A stretch of 64,000 bases of DNA, taken from Saccostrea cucullata. Taxonomy: Eukaryota. The stretch is taken from assembly GCF_032062105.1 (NCBI RefSeq), contig NW_026935164.1:248001-312000 (forward strand). The letters run 5' to 3'. Positions within the stretch are counted from its first letter, which is position 1. Every line of letters starts with the position of its first letter. Made by a program: the position numbers and the translations under genes. Under the pieces are notes generated by a model. That model worked only from the letters and a program-made list of their open reading frames with translations. It did no database searches and had not been told where the DNA came from. This document shows, in pieces, positions 9,264-19,837 of this stretch.

Positions 9264-10023
9264 TTACCCCACCTCTGTTGATTTTTCCGTGAAATCCTGG
9301 CTTACGATTGGTTATAGTCTGTCACGTGAAAGCGGTGGATTACTTATACCCGGTCAGTTGTAAATCCATACCCGGTCAGTTGTAAATCTATACCCGGTCG
9401 ATGTAATACGTCACAAACACAAACGTGACGTCATAATAGGCAAAGTATAAGCGTGATGAAGCATTTAGCAGAGAAAACCATTTATAAACTACAGATAAAA
9501 CGTAAATGTTTCATCGGTGGGGTAAATTCGTTACATAATCTTTTAGTGACAGGGTATGGGATGATACCTGGTTAGTAAATTTAGTCGGCTCCGCCTCGCC
9601 AGGTATGAAATTTCAGGTATCAATTCACTAAAAGACTATGTAACTAATATTACATAGTCTTTTAGTGACAGGGTACGGGATGATACCTGGTTAGTAAATT
9701 AGTAAAGGCGGAGCCGAGTCAGGTATGAAATTTCATAACCAGGTATCATTCCGTACTCTATCACTAAAAGACTATGTAACGAATTTACCCCACCGATGAA
9801 ACATTTACGTATTATCTGTGATTTATTAATGTTTTTCTCTGCTACACGCTTCATCATGCTTATACTGTGCCTATTATGACGTCACGTTGTGTTAGTTAAG
9901 CCACACATCGACGGGGTGTAGATTTACAACTGACCGGATATAAGTAATCGACCTCGTTCACGTGACAGACTTCAACCAATCGTAAGCCAGGATTTCACGG
10001 AAAAATCAACAGAGGTGGGGTAA
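9264..10023. mobile_element. Foldback (long inverted-repeat) element
   Basis: TTACCCCACCTCTGTTGATTTTTCCGTGAAATCCTGGCTTACGATTGGTT at the left end and its exact reverse complement at the right end; the arms keep pairing inward for ~270 bp. Confidence 0.9.
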
Positions 10024-10437
10024 AGGTACCTACGGTACGTTTGCCTTTTGGAATAAGCTCCGCACCGGAAGCGTTCTCTAAACGGGTACAAGAGATGTTT
10101 TCTGACTTGAAGGGCGTGGATTTCATTGTCGACGACTTGTAAGTGTGAGGTGAGACCACCGCGGAACATGATTCCTGTGTACAACATATGTTACAACGGT
10201 GTCGCGAAAAGAACTTTTAAGTTAAATAAGAGTAATGTGGAGTTCCGTGTACCAGAAGTGAGGTACATAAGACACTTGATTTCGAACAGTTGTATCAAAG
10301 TAGATCCTGAGAAAGTACGAGCCATAGTAGATATGCCTTCTCCAACGGATGTATCAGGAGTGAAACGTGTGTTAGGTGTTGTTTACATACAGACTGTGGA
10401 CAAAAGTATTCGCACGATCGCGTCATTTTTAAACATG

Positions 10438-10894
10438 TGTAACAGGACTGTCTAGGGGTTAGTCCCGAACATAAGTCCGAGTTCAGAAGGATAAAAGAAT
10501 AACAAGAATTTCAGTGTTTAAAGAATTAGATTCTATATTCTGTTGCAATATTTACAATTTAACACAAACGTAAAAGATATGAAACAATATCATATAAAAT
10601 CCAAGAATGCAATAGTTACCATTATAGTAGAAATTTAGCCCCAGTCCACAAAAATACGTCTAATTGATAGTTAAAGATACTTCAGACTGCTGATTAAATA
10701 AATGTACATAACATATAATAATAGTAAATCCCGGCAGGGTACTATAGACCCGGGCGCGCCCAACCCGGACGGGTTATAAACAAAGGGGAATAACTCTAAA
10801 CAACAAGTAATGACGAATAGAGAGAAATATGAATATACATAAATACACTGTGATTACATACGCATATAATTAAATACATATAAAAACCACCACA
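10438..10894 (-). repeat. 3' LTR of Gypsy B
   Basis: TGTGGTGG...GTTACA on the minus strand; near-identical to 15995-16440. Confidence 0.88.
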
Positions 10895-11161
10895 CTCCCC
10901 CTTCCTTAGGACCTAATATGGATGAAAATACACATTAGTCCAAAAATAATCACATGTATGTCTTATAAATCCAAGTAATAATTCAAATTAACATACATTC
11001 AATTATCATAAAATATAATGTACATGCATCAGCATTTAGAAACTTTAAGATAATAGACATTCAATCAATTACATGTACAGTTATATAAACACTTTTTAAA
11101 CAATAAATAAACAATGTCATAACTTTCGCATATTTACACAGTTCATCACAGTTGATCGCAC

Positions 11162-12000
11162 TTACTCCTCGAAAAGTTTGTCCATCGATCGCAATTTCCT
11201 CAATTCGCCCTCTAACTCACGGTTCTTCTTCTCCAGTTGGTGTCTCATATCCCTCTCTCGCTCCAGTTCCGTTCTGTCTCAATCCTCGATTCTTTTCTTC
11301 ACCAGCGCTCTGGCCCTTCCTATGATGTCCATGCTATTTCAAAGCCACATGAGGCATGATTGTAGTTCCTCGGAATTACCTGCCTCTGGAAGGTTTGGTA
11401 GGCTGAGGGTTGGTAAGCCCACGTTGTTTGGGTCCCTATAGACTGGTGATCTGGGATTTTCCGGTCCCTGTACTCCTGGAAAGTAAGCTTTCTCTTCTTG
11501 CTGCTGGTCTCTAGCTCTCCTTCCTCGAGAACGGTTGTTACTGCAGTGGACAGTCTGAGTAGAAAGACTACTCTCTACATCCATCGGGGTAATTCCATCA
11601 TCTGCACTGGAATCCGCTTGTTCCTGGATCACTGCTGGATCAGTAGCTTCCCTCATGCAGCCTCCTTTGAATGTGTATAGACCTTGGTCTAAATAACTCC
11701 ACTCTGTCCTGATTGCTCTCATGTGCTCGGCGAATGTGAGTCCTCATGTCTGATTTCCTCCTGCATTCTGCACTGCAACCATTGACCGAACATAAGTATT
11801 TTGTAATGGACAGTTTGTGTCTCTCCTCCCAGTGTCTGGAGAATGTGGATTTGGAGGGAAACTTTGTCCCTTTGCATCCTAGGACAGGGCAGACCATTCC
11901 TGAAGGATCGTAGAGGACTTCGATATAATCTGTTTGGCACTGTCCAAGGACAGCATTGACTTCACTCTTGTCCGCGAATAATTCTAGAAAATCTGTAGCC
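11162..12000 (-). pseudogene. Gypsy B additional ORF: two C2H2 zinc fingers + C-terminal coiled coil (disrupted)
   Basis: CPVLGC..FSRHWEERH and YLCSVNGC..MRTHIRRAH; frameshift near 11700; tail ..TELERERDMRHQLEKKNRELEGELRKLRSMDKLFEE* with two in-frame TGA; acceptor-like TATTTCAG|GCT at 12001/12000. Confidence 0.75.
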
Positions 12001-12424
12001 TGAAATAGAATTTGTTTATTATTAAAGAGCTGTATGAATATTTTCTTTTCACTAATAAGCGTAGCATTATAACAGCAAACAGTTGGAAAGGAAAATAAAT
12101 AAACTGTATAACCTATCCCCACCAATTAAACAACAATGACAACTGTCATTTCTCCTGACATAACAAGTACACATCCCATCACTCAGAGAATCACTATTCT
12201 CTCATGGGAAATAACACCTAGTAGATAAGACACCGAAAGCTAAACCCATGGTATACACAAAACAAATCTACCCAATTCCAACCTTAGGAATTGATACCAT
12301 GTACTAAATGTCCTCATGTCCTCAACAGACATAAAAATGGGACTTCCAGAGGATTATGCTTCATTAAAACAAACAAATAACATAAACACCACCCCCAAGA
12401 AATATATTTATCTTAGTTATTTTT

Positions 12425-15400
12425 CTAAGGAGAATATCGAGAAACGGATTTTATGAGCCTTCCTTTCCGCGAGAAAGCATCAGCGCGTCTCGATTGAACC
12501 GCATCCAGATCTGGCGATTTGTAAGCCAAAGGCTCAATTTCCTCCCGATCGCTCATAGTATCATATTCGGAATCTGAACTTCCATCATATAGACATGATT
12601 CGTCTTGGTCATTGTCAGAATCATATTGATTCTCTGCAATTCCGTCACCGTGCAGTTGCTTCAGGTGATCAACATGGACCACAACTGTTTTTCCTGTTGT
12701 TTCATGTTTTATCTCATAGGTTATGTCTGAGAATTTCCGAATAGCCCTGTAGGGTCCTGTCCAACCGGATCCTAATTTCTGGTTTGATTTTGGTGGGTAC
12801 CATCTCCATACCAGATCATCTATTGCAAACTCCCATGGCTTCAGTCTAACATCATGGTATCGTTTTTGTTTCTTAAAACTTGATTGCAAGTTTTCATGAA
12901 CAATACCATACGTAATTTCCATAGTATTGCGAGTCCATTCTACGTAAGAATGATAGCAGCCAAACTCTGTTGTATTTGTAGGAGTTGTACCAGCTATAAC
13001 ATCTATGGGCAGATTGATTTCTCTCCCTAACATGACCAAATTGGGAGTACATTTTGTACTCTCTGAAGCGTGGCACGGTAGGCCATCATTAAATATGGCA
13101 AGTGGCAAGTGATCATCCCAATTAGATCTGTTTTCATCGACAAAGATAGACAACATTTGCTGGAGTGTGCGGTTGAATCTCTCTACCATACCGTCGGATT
13201 GAGGGTGATATGGCGTGGTACGGGATTTTATTATCTCCAAGAGAGAACACAACTCAGCAAACAGTGCCGATTCGAATTCACGGCCTTGGTCGGTATGGAT
13301 TCTAAAAGGTATGGCTAAGCGGCATATTACTTCCGTTACAAGCTTATCAGCAACCGTCTGTGCTGTATGATCTTCTAATGCAAACGCCTCTTTCCATTTG
13401 GAAAAATAATCTCCAACAACCATAATGTATTGTTTTCTTTCTTTAGTTAACGGTAGGGGACCTAAGATGTAGATGACAAGACATTCCATAGGACCAAATA
13501 CTTCATGGTGTTGCATTGGGGACTTTCCTTGTCCAGGGCCTGGCTTTTTCTTTGAACAAGGTTGACAAGTTTGACACCAGCGTGCAACATCATCAGTCAT
13601 TCCTGGCCAATAAAAACGATTTCTGATAGAATGTAGAGTTCTCTCGCGTCCAAGATGTCCCGACGACTTACTGTTATGCAAATGTTGCATAATTTCTCTC
13701 ATTATAGATTTTGGGGCAACTAACTGGAGACGACTTTCATTTTCATTTTCTTCCCATACTCTGTAGAGTATATCGTTTTCCAATTTAAGTCGCTGCCACT
13801 GGCGAAGCAATGTGTTTACTGTTGGCAAAGGATCATTTAATTTCGGTCGTTCTTTCTGATGAATGATAAGTTGCTTAACCTTTGATATCGCCATGTCTTT
13901 GTCCTGTTGTTCTTGTAAGTATTGAGGACTCCATTGTTCTACCCAATTGGATTCGGTTCTACTAGCCTTGGTAATGTCTGAATCTTGAGTAGCTGCTGAG
14001 CTCAAAGCATTGACTGAGCATTTTCCGGATGAGCATTGGTTGCATCCTTCTCTTTTGCAACGTTTCCTTGGTTTCCTAGACAAGCCATCTGCATTGCCAT
14101 GAAGACTCCCTTTTCTGTGTTCAATTTTGAAGTCATATGTTTCTAACAGAGATATCCAACGTGCAAGTAAACCTTCTGGCTCCTTAAATTCTTCAACCAG
14201 ATCAACGAAGAATGGCGGTTCTTAATAAAAAGGGTCTTCCATATTAATAGTGTCGGAATTGCTTGACAAAGGTTACGACTGCTAGTAGCTCTCGATACGT
14301 AGTGCAATATCCCATTTGGGTTCTGGATAGTGTCTTGCTGCTATAAGCAATTACTACTTCCTCTCCATTTTGCATCTGTGAAAGCACAGCTCCGACTCCA
14401 TATGTGCTAGCATCAGTATCCAATATAAATTCATCTGTTGGTGATGGATACGATAACACTGGTGCAGTTGTAAGGAGATGCTTTAAGATATTAAAAGCAT
14501 TTTCACATTCCTCTGACCATTCAAATTTTCTTTTCTTTTGTGTCAAACGGGTAAGCGGGTACGCGACATTCGAAAAATTGTTTATAAACCTGCGATAATA
14601 GGATGCAAGTCCTATAAAGCTGCGTAGTTCTGATACAGAAGTTGGAACGGGCCAATTCATTACAGCTGATATCTTATCAGGGTTACATCTAATACCTTCT
14701 TGGGATACAGTATGACCTAGAAATTTTACTTGCTCTTGAAACAAGGCACATTTCTTTGGTTTTAGTTTAAGATTCGCTGTACGAAGTCTGTCAAAGATGA
14801 CAGTCAGGACTCTAGAGTTTCTTCAAACTTGGCACCAAATGTTATGATGTCGTCTAGATAAACTAGACATTTCTCCCATTGTAGGCCAGATAGAACAGCT
14901 TCCATCAAGCGTTCAAATGTTGCCGGGCTATTAGATAAACCAAACGGTAACACTTTAAACTGGAATAGACCCCTGTGGGTTGCTAACGCTGTCTTGGTTT
15001 TATCAGATTCGTCCATGGCAACTTGCCAATATCCGCTAGCAAGATCGAGGGTACAGAAGAAAGCGCCGGAGAGTGTGTCTAGTGATTCGTTGATTCGTGG
15101 CAGGGGAGAGGCATCCTTAATCGTTACGTTATTTAGCTTTCGATAATCTACACAGAAACGTGTAGTCCCATCCCGTTTCTTCACTAGAACTATCGGCGCA
15201 GCCCAAGGTGAACTGCTTGGTTCTATTATATCAGCGTCAAGCATTTTGTCTATTTCTTGATCTGCTATAGCGTTTTGGTGCATAGGCAGACGCCTTGGTG
15301 GTAACTTGATTGGTTTAGCGCTGTCAGTATTGATCGTGTGTTTCACAAGGTCTGTACGCCCTAATGGGGTATTTGGTCCCATAAAAACGTCAGCACGACT

Positions 15401-15961
15401 TGCTAATGTGTTGCTTAACAGCTGGCGTTGCTGTTCAGTTAAGCTACTTGAGCTATTGTCGACCAGGGGCTGCAAAGAGTCGGGTAAGCTTGTCTCCACT
15501 GGACGGCTTTCTGTGACTCTGCTGTCAAATTCAGTTACAGATTCAATTGTTTGCACGGACGCCACGGTAGCATTTTTCTTAAGTATCACTGTTTCTGTTG
15601 TTGGATTTAGTACAGAGAAAAGCACTTTGTTATTCTGTACATTGACGACAGATTTTGGTAACAAAATTCGTTTATCATTGGAAAGCGGTTCTATCAATCC
15701 TTCCACACCATGTGGAAATCCACAATCCGTGCTTCCTTTCAAAAACATCTCGCATTTAGCTGGTATGCTAATCGTCTCTGTCACATGAATGCGTGCGCAT
15801 GTACTTTGTAATTTGTCCTCTTTTACTAAACCGATCTCACCAAAGAATGGTGAATGTAGTCGTCCTAGGTTCATGTCCATTATAGCCTCATATTTTGAAA
15901 GAAAATCAAGTCGGAGTATACCGGACAAATCTCCAAGTTGAGCAACAACAACAGTTGTCAA
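12425..15961 (-). pseudogene. Gypsy B pol (partial protease, RT, RNase H, integrase)
   Basis: SPWAAPIVLV, RFCVDYRKLN, LDLASGYWQV, YLDD, TDAS, YCTTYRELLA, HHCC zinc finger, TDQGREF, ERFNRTL, WTGPY; several frameshifts. Confidence 0.95.
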
Positions 15962-15989
15962 AAATTCCTTCCCATTAATACATAGAGAC

Positions 15990-16669
15990 TTGTTAGAATA
16001 ACAAGAATTTCAGTGTTTAAAGAATTAGATTCTATATTCTGTTGCAGTATTTACAATTTAACACAAACGATATGAAACAATATCATATAAAATCCAAGAA
16101 TGCAATAGTTACCATTATAGTAGAAATTTAGCCCCAGTCCACAAAAATACGTCTAATTGATAGTTAAAGATACTTCAGACTGCTGATTAAATAAATGTAC
16201 ATAACATATAATAATAGTAAATCCCGGCAGGGCACTATAGCCATTCTGTATTCTCTGCATTGTACACGTCCGGTTCTTTGTATTTTCTAAAACGATTGCT
16301 TCTTTTAGACCTGGGCGCGCCCAACCCGGACGGGTTATAAACAAAGGGGAATAACTCTAAACAACAAGTAATGACAAATAGAGGGAAATATGAATATACA
16401 TAAATACACTGTAATTACAAACACATATAATTAAATACATAAGTCCGAGTTCAGAAGGATAAAAGAATAACAAGAATTTCATACATTCTGTTGCAGTACC
16501 GGAAATAGTAGAAATTTAGCCCCAGTCCACAAAAATACGTCTAATTGATAGTTAAATACACTGATTAAATAAATGTACATAACATATACGGGTTATTAAC
16601 TAAACACATATAATTAAATACACTGTAATTACAAACACATATAATTAAATACATACAAAAACCACCACA
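15990..16669 (-). repeat. Rearranged 5' LTR region of Gypsy B
   Basis: One nearly complete LTR copy (15995-16440) followed by a multiply deleted second copy ending ACCACCACA at 16669. Confidence 0.8.
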
Positions 16670-16768
16670 CGTTTATCGCGTGTTGTATAATTCAGGTTGT
16701 CTTTCTTAGTATATCCACGATTCAACCCATTTAAAAAGTCAAGGTCATTGATAGTGACGTAATATTAT

Positions 16769-17356
16769 TTGTATTCGTCTGCATCTGTTAAACCGAATTT
16801 TGATAAAAGGGGATACATTTGTTGGAAATCATCTGAACTTAATCAGAGCTGTAAAGAAAACATTGTTACATTGATACAGGATGGTAAAAGTTTTCGTGAA
16901 GTTTTAAATTTATTGAAAATATCTAAATCAACTGTGTATAGTATGTGGAAAAAATTTAGGAGACATGGTTCCATTGAAAATAAACATAGGAGTGGACGCA
17001 GAAAGTTAGTGGATGAGTGTGCTGCACGGAGACTTGTTAGACAGACTCGGGTGGATAGAAAAAAGCCTTTATCGGACTTAACAAGGAAGTACAACGAAAA
17101 TGATCATTCCAATGTGCCAAAGAAGACTATCTGGCGTTGTTTGAGACGCAATGGTTACAAAAGTTGTGTGTATAAAAAGAAATACTGATCCAAGTAGCAT
17201 ATCGTGTGAAACGAGTGCAATGGTGTGCATGTAAAAGAAACTGGACGGTTGAAAATAACTGGAAAAATATAATTTTCTCTGACGAAAGTCAAATTGTCAT
17301 TGGAAATGACTATAGAGTACAGATATGGAGAAAAGGTGACGAATCTTGGCTGCCGG
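16769..17356 (+). pseudogene. Tc1 transposase, 5' part
   Basis: HTH region, HRSGRRK, WKNIIFSDESQI; frame broken at the CCGG Ginger insertion site. Confidence 0.9.
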
Positions 17357-17607
17357 TGTCGTATAGTGAGACTTCCCCCATAGTGAGGCTTCCCCCGGAA
17401 GGCTCACTATATAGAGTCTTCCCCCCGAAAGGCTGGCTGTATAGTGAGCCTTCCCCCCGGAAGAATGGCTATATAGTGAGACTTCCCCCCGGAAAAATGG
17501 CTATATAGTGAGACTTCCCCCACGGAAGTTTCACTATATAGCCGTTCTTCCGGGGGGAAGGCTCACTTTATAGCCAGCCTTCCCCCATTCATAGCGAGAC
17601 TTCCCCC
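17357..17607. repeat. Ginger left TIR / subterminal repeat array
   Basis: Repeated (C)TATATAGTGAG(A/C)CTTCCCCC motifs in both orientations. Confidence 0.88.
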
Positions 17608-19837
17608 TCTTATTATAGTTTCCGGAACATTGTGATTGTTTTATTATTTAAAAAAATTCTAACAGTGTTAATTTATGACGAAATTATCTTCCATATATAT
17701 ACATGTATTTATATATTTATTTTATATGCATGAACAGTTTGAATATCGTTTTAACTGTTTGATATCCATTATAACATATGCATGTACATTGAGATGATAT
17801 AATAATATATAATATGTATACCCTTTCCTTTACATGTATTGATAACGAATAATTTTATTAGTTCACGAGTCACTTATATGAAATGTTCTGATTGTTTTCA
17901 GCATTTGAATAAAAAAAATTGATAGCATAGTTTTGTTTGTTTGTTTTTCTGTTTGTGTACAAACATTAGCTATTTACACATTAGATATGGTTCAACCGAT
18001 TTAATAAAAAATGTAGCGAAAAGAAGAAAAATTTCTAGTACTTTAAGACTATGCGAGAAATAAAATCATTGTGCTCGAATGTGAAAAATAAAACATGCAT
18101 TCCAAATCTATGATTTTCTTAGTTCCTAACTATATTTATCGAAAGTTTCATGTACATTAAGTTTAAAGTCATATACGCTGTATGAACGCTGAATTTTGTG
18201 TGAAACAAAATGATTAATGATTCAAAACACATGAAGTGTAATGAAAATTAATACTTTCCACAAAATTGTACTATAGATGTCGTTGTAATAACAAAACAAT
18301 TAAACATATCTGGGAATTAAGAATTCAGTCTTTTCATGAATATTGATGAAGGCAGTGCGTAAACAGTAGGCCTATATATAGAAACACATGTTCACGGGAA
18401 ATCACAGACGAGGTTTTTTGCATTTTGACAACAATTATTAATATTAAGGTCAATATGCGTCATAATTGAGAAGATAGTTGATACTGAATACATTAAAAGA
18501 TAAGTACCATTAAGAGTAAGACGCTTGCCATCCACGTGAAAAGTGAGTAGTATCTCAAACGGCCTATCTTGTTTTCTTTACGCCACGTGTGTTTATCAAT
18601 CTAAAAGTAGCGACGGCATCACGTGATGGATTTATTTAAAAATAGCTATTTTTCTTTCCTTGCAGGATAATAAATAATTACAATTTGATAACTTTGTAAC
18701 GCGTTTAATTTTAATGGTGTAATTTACAGTATTTTCGTAACTTTTATTGATAAACAAATGATATCAATTTCCAATCGTATTTTAACTGGCGCAAGTTATA
18801 GCGTGTATACTTTTAAATCTACTTTAAGGATAATTTTAAGCATCATTTAATAGATATGCTGAAATGTAAAATTGATTGGAAAATATTTCATTTACTTTAT
18901 CCACAGGGACGTTTACAATATTAAAGACTTCATAGATCAGTGGTTCGACAAAAATTTACACTACAGCACATAAATCTCAGATTTTTATGAAAGGTCCGTA
19001 ACTGATCATGATTCAATTTGCTGAAATCACGAGAGAGTCAGCGATTTGAGCGCCGTGGTCGTTTTTCTCCAATTGACGAAAACCAGTATGCACGCATTTT
19101 ATAAAACAAACTTTAAAGTTATTACAACTTTTTATATTAAATATAAGCAGATAAAACCCGTTTTAATAACAACAAATATTGGAAAAGTAATAGTTCATCG
19201 ATTTTCTTGAAATAATATATTATTTAACTCAGGATCAGAGGCGCTTAGATTTATTTTTATTAAACACATATATTTCAGAACATATACGTAATTTTATTTA
19301 ACCTAACTAAGGAATTTAAAATAAAAAAAAATACAATATAGGAATGACTAAAATATACATGTTTAATATGTATTTTGCATAATTTTATTGAATATCTCCT
19401 CCCCCTCTCTCTCTTTCTCTACTAATATATGTACATGTATTTCTCTCATTGTGATTTTTTTTCAATTCTGTCTGTCCGTTCGTAATACAGTCCATGTTTT
19501 TCGTTTTGTCTATTCCTTTTTTTCATTTTCTTCGTCCGCTGTGTGTTATTGCGAGTTAATTAATTAGATAACTAGTATTAAGAAGGAGTACTCTTTACAT
19601 GTAGGATTTTGAACCAAATATCGCGGAGGTACGTTCATACTCCCTAGCTCCTGACTTTGTCATGATGATCTAGCCTATGAATATTTCGCAAATATAATTA
19701 ATTTGATATGGAATATTTTTAAATAAAAAAAAAATAAATCTTATATTTATGCAAAGACAATAAATTTGATTTTAAAAAACATTTTTTTAACAAACATTTT
19801 ATTTCATTTGCATGTTTATTTCATAAGATGCTCATGT

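Follow-up and report, generated by a model that had tools for sequence, protein, structure and literature searches.

A decayed Gypsy element with a third ORF lies on the minus strand

The window is a 64,000-nucleotide stretch of the Saccostrea cucullata genome (contig NW_026935164.1, positions 248,001 to 312,000). Its minus strand carries a decayed Gypsy element, Gypsy B, in which pol fragments, a spacer, a broken third open reading frame (ORF3), a polypurine tract (PPT) and an LTR follow one another in that order. The features, given in window coordinates, are:

15995..16670 (-): scrambled pieces of the 5' LTR plus a 62-nt gag fragment; a second copy of the donor-like site lies at 16109-16115
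12425..15985 (-): frameshifted pol, comprising the end of protease, RT, RNase H and integrase; from ORFs and Pfam matches
12160..12320 (-): non-coding stretch, conserved in families A, B and C, of the spacer between pol and ORF3; it has small hairpins and no significant folding z-score
12000..12011 (-): putative splice acceptor, a pyrimidine tract followed by CAG (AG = 12001-12000); from sequence and conservation
11162..11999 (-): ORF3, decayed by three deletions and two stops relative to open sister copies of 295 codons
11895..11999 (-): acidic/hydrophobic N-terminal 35 codons of ORF3, under purifying selection and with no conserved ATG upstream in the window's family
11721..11891 (-): two C2H2 fingers, C-x4-C-x13-H-x4-H and C-x4-C-x12-H-x4-H, these form the core of a domain predicted to be compact
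11470..11499 (-): basic patch, then an [ST]-L-x-E-Y motif; from sequence
11425..11433 (-): TQT motif resembling an LC8 anchor, in a disordered stretch; from sequence, with the motif definition of PMC6607443 (in part)
11162..11400 (-): long C-terminal helix; predicted homodimer interface at residues 208-260 of an open sister copy
10895..10907 (-): PPT; from sequence
10438..10894 (-): 3' LTR of 457 bp, TG...CA; to a young sister LTR it has 86% identity across the full 465-base query
10616..10622 (-): donor-like ATG/GTAA in the 3' LTR copy, the candidate donor; the first codon after the acceptor shares the frame of its ATG

The pol stop codon (12427-12425) is followed by a spacer of 425 nt and then by ORF3, which spans 838 nt and terminates at a TAA (11164-11162) after a charged C-terminal helix. 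Comparison with one open sister copy revealed deletions of 44, 2 and 4 nt near 11,700, 11,550 and 11,420, and in-frame stops at 11341 and 11281. Both finger motifs and the low-complexity linker are present. These observations bear out an initial annotation, made from the letters of the window, that placed a decayed ORF of ~280 codons on the pol strand between the integrase stop and the PPT and 3' LTR. The window element has no PBS, and most of its gag is gone.

Two other elements border this one. A Tc1/mariner transposase remnant with subterminal repeats (16763-17635) adjoins it, and RT-like fragments of another retroelement, into which the Gypsy element was apparently inserted, lie on the plus strand at 9966-10455.

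ORF3 is a selected component of a Gypsy clade

The order of the pol domains, protease-RT-RNase H-integrase, is that of a Ty3/Gypsy LTR retrotransposon. Sister copies have paired TG...CA LTRs, a PBS, a PPT and a gag with a CCHC knuckle; full-length copies have the order LTR-gag-pol-ORF3-LTR, with LTR pairs that are 97-100% identical and 4-bp target duplications. Searching the same genome with the ORF gave 27 matches at the DNA level, 14 of them spanning the whole query, and 130 matches at the protein level.

The initial annotation proposed that sister copies be examined for an intact ORF that is under purifying selection and lies inside the element, and on each point the result was positive. 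ORF3 is open over 295 codons in six of the 11 copies of the window's family that were read (two of the six come from one tandem array). Natural open copies of this family gave ORF3 dN/dS values of 0.07-0.16 (10 pairs), against ranges of 0.12-0.17 in pol and 0.24-0.33 in gag (3 pairs each), and ORF3 values in other families were 0.14, 0.20 and 0.32. An upstream pol on the same strand was found at 48 of 59 long loci with an ORF3 match; at the remaining 11 we found no open full-length or stand-alone frame.

We also measured the association of ORF3 with the element in an unbiased sample, 38 further loci chosen from 150 integrase matches by integrase alone. The ORF3 profile matched 24 of these. In a 46-row integrase tree, all ORF3-bearing families fall in one 39-row clade with a support of 98; the tree is a quick search of own-genome rows with a midpoint root, in which L166 is a long-branch artefact and from which six of 52 rows with no unbroken integrase stretch were left out. 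Three rows of the clade gave no profile match: one copy actually carries the region, one has a deletion and one reaches a contig end. None of the six rows outside the clade matches the ORF3 profile; pol is directly followed by the PPT in L184, and the finger ORF found in L173 is a different one.

ORF3 occurs in two forms, a long form of 278-375 aa in seven families and a short form of about 150-210 aa. Beyond this genome, relatives were found among oyster and mussel proteins, in records from Magallana, Ostrea and Mytilus. An exact look-up of 10 ORF3 forms from this genome in a protein collection returned none, and the metagenome and viral contigs that were searched held no relative. ORF3 belongs integrally to the element and is under selection. 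It spans a deep integrase clade and is no one-off capture; a host gene picked up by this copy, one of the outcomes that the initial annotation named as fatal to its proposal, was not borne out.

ORF3 is predicted to be a dimeric two-finger protein

An AlphaFold model of ORF3 has a compact domain (residues 26-129), a disordered stretch (133-213) and a single helix (226-292); modelled alone, the finger domain reached a pLDDT of 87. Zinc ligands C37, C42, H56, H61, C70 and C75 are invariant in 31 of 31 sequences, and H88 is conserved in more than 90%. Spacing and ligands fit the classical pattern C-x2-4-C-x12-H-x3-5-H, with finger 1 longer by one residue and the last His variable in the short forms. 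Pfam zf-C2H2 scored 17.7-19.7 bits, under its cut-off of 25.2. Motifs and model thus agree with the two C2H2 fingers, disordered linker and charged terminal helix of the initial annotation, with Pfam alone falling below threshold.

The best fold matches were DNA-bound finger pairs, all of them weak (E at least 0.07, Z 5.1-5.4). They include tramtrack 2drp (TM 0.72 of the target, rmsd 2.8 over 66 columns, E 0.07) and CTCF (Z 5.3, rmsd 2.1, 58 aligned), the latter being also the top solved-structure match of the ORF3 profile (E 0.0009). Coiled coils crowded the results of the fold search with the full model, E values in the viral library were above 0.03, and the ESM Atlas returned only generic C2H2 clusters (0.85-0.90). 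Host C2H2 proteins have weak similarity to ORF3. Fingers of the C2H2 type can have RNA or proteins as ligands too. At the base-reading positions, the residues ZF1 +6 R, ZF2 -1 R and ZF2 +3 D are fixed in all seven long-form families, which by the usual finger code suggests a CG-G site; in the short forms, which lack the TQT motif and the long helix, these positions are variable. With the fixed residues and the weak fold matches taken together, the domain resembles a finger pair of the DNA-binding kind, in keeping with the nucleic-acid-binding character proposed in the initial annotation.

The remainder of the protein carries several short features. Six to 10 of the first 30 residues are D or E in all eight families, and Met35, just ahead of the first finger, is more than 90% conserved. 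An [ST]-[LVI]-x-[ED]-Y motif occurs in five of seven long-form families; we take its [ST]-L-x-E-Y form to resemble motifs in cyclin T1, MLL5/SETD5 and Set3, and a literature search for this likeness found nothing. All seven long forms have a TQT-like motif (strict TQT in five, SQT or CQT in the other two) in a region that is disordered in the model (pLDDT below 50 at residues 199-213).

A homodimer was predicted through residues 208-260, with a score of 0.53 against 0.00 for the best control; 21 of 30 solved pairs and 0 of 23 single chains attained the mark applied to this score, as did 7 of 16 animal pairs. Contact agreement between runs was at least 44% and pLDDT at least 56. The predicted helix pairing is antiparallel, which would suit zipping by LC8 less well. 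The highest 19-residue Kyte-Doolittle mean was 0.32-1.16 across 8/8 families, indicating that there is no signal peptide or membrane helix, as the initial annotation stated. By these predictions, ORF3 is no Env.

The acceptor ahead of ORF3 is conserved

In all of the first eight families, a YAG lies 0-5 nt ahead of the first ORF3 codon. A stricter acceptor rule was passed by seven of the eight, compared with 109 of 3224 background windows. We then considered the 22 held-out loci with a readable start (21 inside the clade, representing eight subclades, 8/8 of them with a YAG). A YAG was found within 9 nt in 22/22 and within 6 nt in 18/22, whereas the 9-nt distance was reached by 19% of background windows and by 30 of 98 internal Met codons. 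Conservation of the acceptor far beyond chance is therefore well supported at the level of sequence.

An ATG follows the acceptor by 0-5 nt in seven of eight families, the window's family (family A) being the sole exception. The initial annotation had ORF3 begin at an acceptor and not at an ATG; this holds for the window's family, with the first coding base corrected to 11999, since 12000 is the G of the AG. The first 35 codons of family A have a dN/dS of 0.08-0.19. Shared variants in this family are distributed 3/1/10 by codon position after the acceptor, and 2/6/3, with 15 gap columns, before it.

Proteins predicted in relatives change at the same point. In one family, seven database proteins part ways precisely at the acceptor; one continues into the intron, and six have five other leaders. 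The Magallana RefSeq model XP_065941010.1 has a 14-residue leader that matches the family-C LTR (13/14, E 1.7e-7) and ends in register with a donor-like site of that LTR. In the Ostrea isoform XP_056018534.1, a foreign N-terminus is joined directly ahead of the first ORF3 Met. These database proteins, which are predicted gene models, thus appear to use the acceptor as a junction.

The foreign N-terminus of the Ostrea edulis isoform (P0038) is THAP-like by eye, with no Pfam match, and another gene model (P0056) joins a tyrosine phosphatase to the ORF3 acceptor. Such foreign exons are possible cases of exon trapping.

We observed no LTR-to-acceptor junction among the pieces listed, which were contigs from four of 24 listed runs compared with one young copy lacking its 3' LTR; assembled contigs drop rare forms. 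RNA-like contigs from three of the four runs span the acceptor unspliced. In run X1, one contig ends at the last base common to the spliced and unspliced forms at the candidate donor, a weak hint from one of four runs that we do not count as support. Because the four contig runs showed no junction, splicing in the window's family is put forward only as putative. The initial annotation's proposal of a spliced ORF3 therefore stands with respect to the conserved acceptor and the switch in relatives' proteins, and the junction that it looked for in RNA was not seen in these four runs.

LTR and spacer sequences

The donor-like ATG/GTAA is unchanged in 30 of 30 family-A LTRs (23 distinct) and sits in the half of the LTR that is conserved throughout. 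It is the one consistent donor-like site of the LTR in the window's family, and its ATG is in frame with ORF3. Donor-like sites are not enriched in LTRs (sense 7/14, antisense 12/14), which leaves the requirement for an in-frame ATG as the basis of the family-A donor. Hence, whereas the acceptor is well supported by its conservation and by the database proteins, the family-A donor is a candidate that we infer. In unspliced RNA (L030:1855-1890), an upstream ORF of 10 codons begins at the donor ATG and precedes gag; it could dampen Gag translation.

LTRs of long-form elements keep a CpG-rich block, with CpG observed/expected ratios of 0.91-1.47 (L034, L043, L088, L077 and L080). CGG/CCG was not reliably enriched beyond CpG content (p 0.03-0.81, 7 LTRs), and thus no finger binding site was found in the LTRs. 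CCAAT plus TATA are mostly absent from long-form LTRs and mostly both present in short-form LTRs (L150-L182), which amounts to one phylogenetic contrast only.

Families A, B and C have in common a non-coding block with short hairpins 221-259 nt ahead of the first codon. This block was not found in families D-H, in which the spacer can have a length of 92-139 nt. Its folding z-scores (-1.6, +0.44 and -0.76) are no better than those of shuffled sequences, and a search of six loci against Rfam gave no match. The spacer of a family D locus (L089) has four copies of a short repeat containing GTTATTG and a 14-nt word in common with family G.

Comparison with known third genes

In the literature covered, the closest arrangement is the CERV gene of Cer1, which encodes a protein of 517 aa from five exons, with an N-terminus common with Gag, a C4 loop, a GTPase-like domain and a role in RNA export (PMC10309623, in part). 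CERV and ORF3 are alike in being non-Env ORFs of Gypsy elements located in the interval from pol to the 3' LTR, with a spliced mRNA (putative for ORF3), and in having a nuclear-type protein with a basic patch, a zinc-binding part and predicted self-association. By contrast, ORF3 is a single-exon product of 150-370 aa that begins with an acidic stretch and has a C2H2 finger pair and a predicted dimer helix; the two are set apart by the published description, as far as that part of the source goes. The Gag-shared N-terminus, C4 loop and GTPase-like domain were not found in ORF3, whose 295 residues are accounted for by the C2H2 pair, the disordered stretch and the helix.

Errantivirus env has a main exon spliced to a short upstream exon, which in the springer subclade supplies an AU dinucleotide (PMC12992720 and PMC13524379, in part). 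ORF3 occupies the same slot, and its putative LTR exon would likewise supply the start. Like errantiviral third ORFs, ORF3 lies behind a splice acceptor, which is conserved, with junctions confined to database proteins of relatives. It differs in lacking a signal peptide, fusion peptide and membrane anchor. Bdelloid rotifer LTR elements also have non-Env third ORFs in an animal, expressed as separate spliced units; these differ in protein kind, being esterases, DEDDy exonucleases or membrane proteins, and the word "zinc" is absent from the main text of that paper (PMC5408684, in part). Additional ORFs of plant elements, such as gene23 of Grande, are conserved in the interval separating pol from the 3' LTR, some are nuclear, and a Tat/Rev-like role has been proposed; unlike ORF3 they are mostly antisense or env-like, and "zinc" is again absent from the main text (PMC7264820, in part). 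LC8 clients of the ASCIZ/ATMIN type resemble ORF3 in joining N-terminal C2H2 fingers to TQT anchors in a disordered tail, as far as the covered parts of the literature describe them; ORF3 differs in having one to three TQT-like sites, and its LC8 binding is putative. TQT is the usual LC8 anchor and is insufficient alone, with many TQT peptides that do not bind (PMC6607443, in part).

The words "ORF", "zinc" and "splic" do not occur in the main text of a mollusc LTR survey (PMC6238403; its supplements, which possibly list these families, lie outside this scope), nor do "zinc" and "accessory" in a bivalve TE survey. We found no description of a C2H2 third ORF in a Gypsy element in the open literature, a scope that leaves aside Repbase, GyDB, subscription journals and supplements. 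The initial annotation did not recognise the arrangement from described Gypsy elements. For the protein family this stands, since none was found in print. Cer1 CERV (PMC10309623, in part) already provides an example in which the slot plus a splice serve a nuclear protein other than Env, which makes the arrangement less unprecedented. Thus, the slot and splice logic is known, the ORF3 protein family appears to be undescribed in the print covered, and the function is putative.

Animal LTR retrotransposons have been taken to rely on host transcription factors, CERV being the one characterised regulatory third gene in the literature covered. If our reading is true, a clade-wide finger protein under selection in oysters and a mussel would add another, unrelated solution, and might be a transactivator that the element itself encodes. 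This would also explain a set of oyster gene models labelled "uncharacterized" as retrotransposon products, and it cautions against equating every ORF in the env slot with env.

A model for ORF3 function

Foamy-virus Tas and plant VANC are encoded by their elements, bind the element's own DNA and raise its expression, and they provide a working model for ORF3, although their folds and element classes are unlike those of ORF3. We propose, with a probability of about 0.5, that ORF3 is a DNA-binding activator of its own element: spliced, nuclear, dimeric and sequence-specific. The message for ORF3 would be a spliced RNA that joins the 5' LTR to the acceptor behind pol; this splice would take out the PBS, gag and pol. 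The start codon would be supplied by the end of the LTR exon in the window's family, and would follow the acceptor in other families. Dimers would form by the predicted pairing of the C-terminal helices, and the fingers would recognise a site that contains CpG and probably lies within the LTR's GC-rich block. The acidic N-terminus and short motifs could then recruit host co-activators or lift silencing, resulting in positive feedback ahead of full-length RNA production.

A broader version of this proposal is offered tentatively, as somewhat less than an even bet. The bivalve clade would consist of "complex" retrotransposons that use the env slot and an env-type splice to encode their own transcription factor, which would bind the CpG-rich LTR block as a positive-feedback switch, with the acceptor also capturing host exons to give new zinc-finger fusion genes.

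A donor in the LTR would place all of gag-pol in an intron, creating a need for RNA export. It is a lesser but real possibility, perhaps a one-in-several chance, that a spliced ORF3 acts in the manner of CERV or Rev, binding intron-containing element RNA, perhaps at the spacer hairpins, and exporting it for Gag/Pol synthesis. CERV is itself spliced, nuclear and oligomeric, has a zinc-binding loop, occupies the same slot and is needed for export (PMC10309623, in part), and ORF3 is predicted to self-associate. The only local support is the conserved hairpin block of families A, B and C; however, this block does not fold significantly, was not found in families D-H and is without a match in Rfam at the six loci. 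Moreover, the conserved finger residues are at DNA-reading helix positions, and the N-terminus is acidic. DNA-type fingers, a dimer helix and short interaction motifs would also suit a role in chromatin tethering, in which ORF3 guides the integration complex or protects new insertions and leaves transcription unraised. We consider this improbable: ORF3 is separate, has its own acceptor and is not fused to integrase, no longer fused form being present among 1848 candidates, which is a weak test.

The RNA-like contigs that span the acceptor unspliced in three of four runs, and the conservation of Met35 above 90%, would be expected if functional ORF3 came from an internal spacer promoter, was not spliced and started at the Met just before finger 1, with the acceptors incidental. 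Against this, an acceptor is present in 8/8 and again 8/8 lineages, database proteins switch there, and the 34 codons ahead of Met35 are under selection, leaving this reading, too, with slim prospects, a shade slimmer than those of tethering. Weak likeness to host C2H2 proteins, together with the env position, could suggest a host zinc-finger gene captured by a copy or family as passive cargo, or an atypical Env. We regard either as scarcely credible and, as far as the data reach, refuted: dN/dS for ORF3 is as low as for pol, ORF3 is present throughout a deep clade, the 11 of 59 loci that lack an upstream pol include no open copy standing alone, and there is no hydrophobic segment. Self-activation by a DNA-binding ORF3 is the reading that we prefer.

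Other finger ORFs and element arrangements

The different finger ORF at L173 (L173:4042-4674, minus strand) encodes 211 aa and follows pol in a Gypsy element outside the clade. It has a YAG 7 nt ahead and QT motifs, and could be a distant relative or a second, independent gain. A young deleted copy with identical LTRs (L037:5794-9211) has its gag-protease fused in frame to the ORF3 C-terminal helix. An [NS]-x-R-D-[EQ] motif lies near the C-terminus of short-form ORF3s (L116, L150-L177) and of families D and G, and not in the window's family. At G000:C3756:49300-100731 (L031, L007-L013), six element copies lie head to tail at a spacing of 7,878 bases and share their LTRs; gag, pol and ORF3 are open in most of them, and similar arrays occur in other families.
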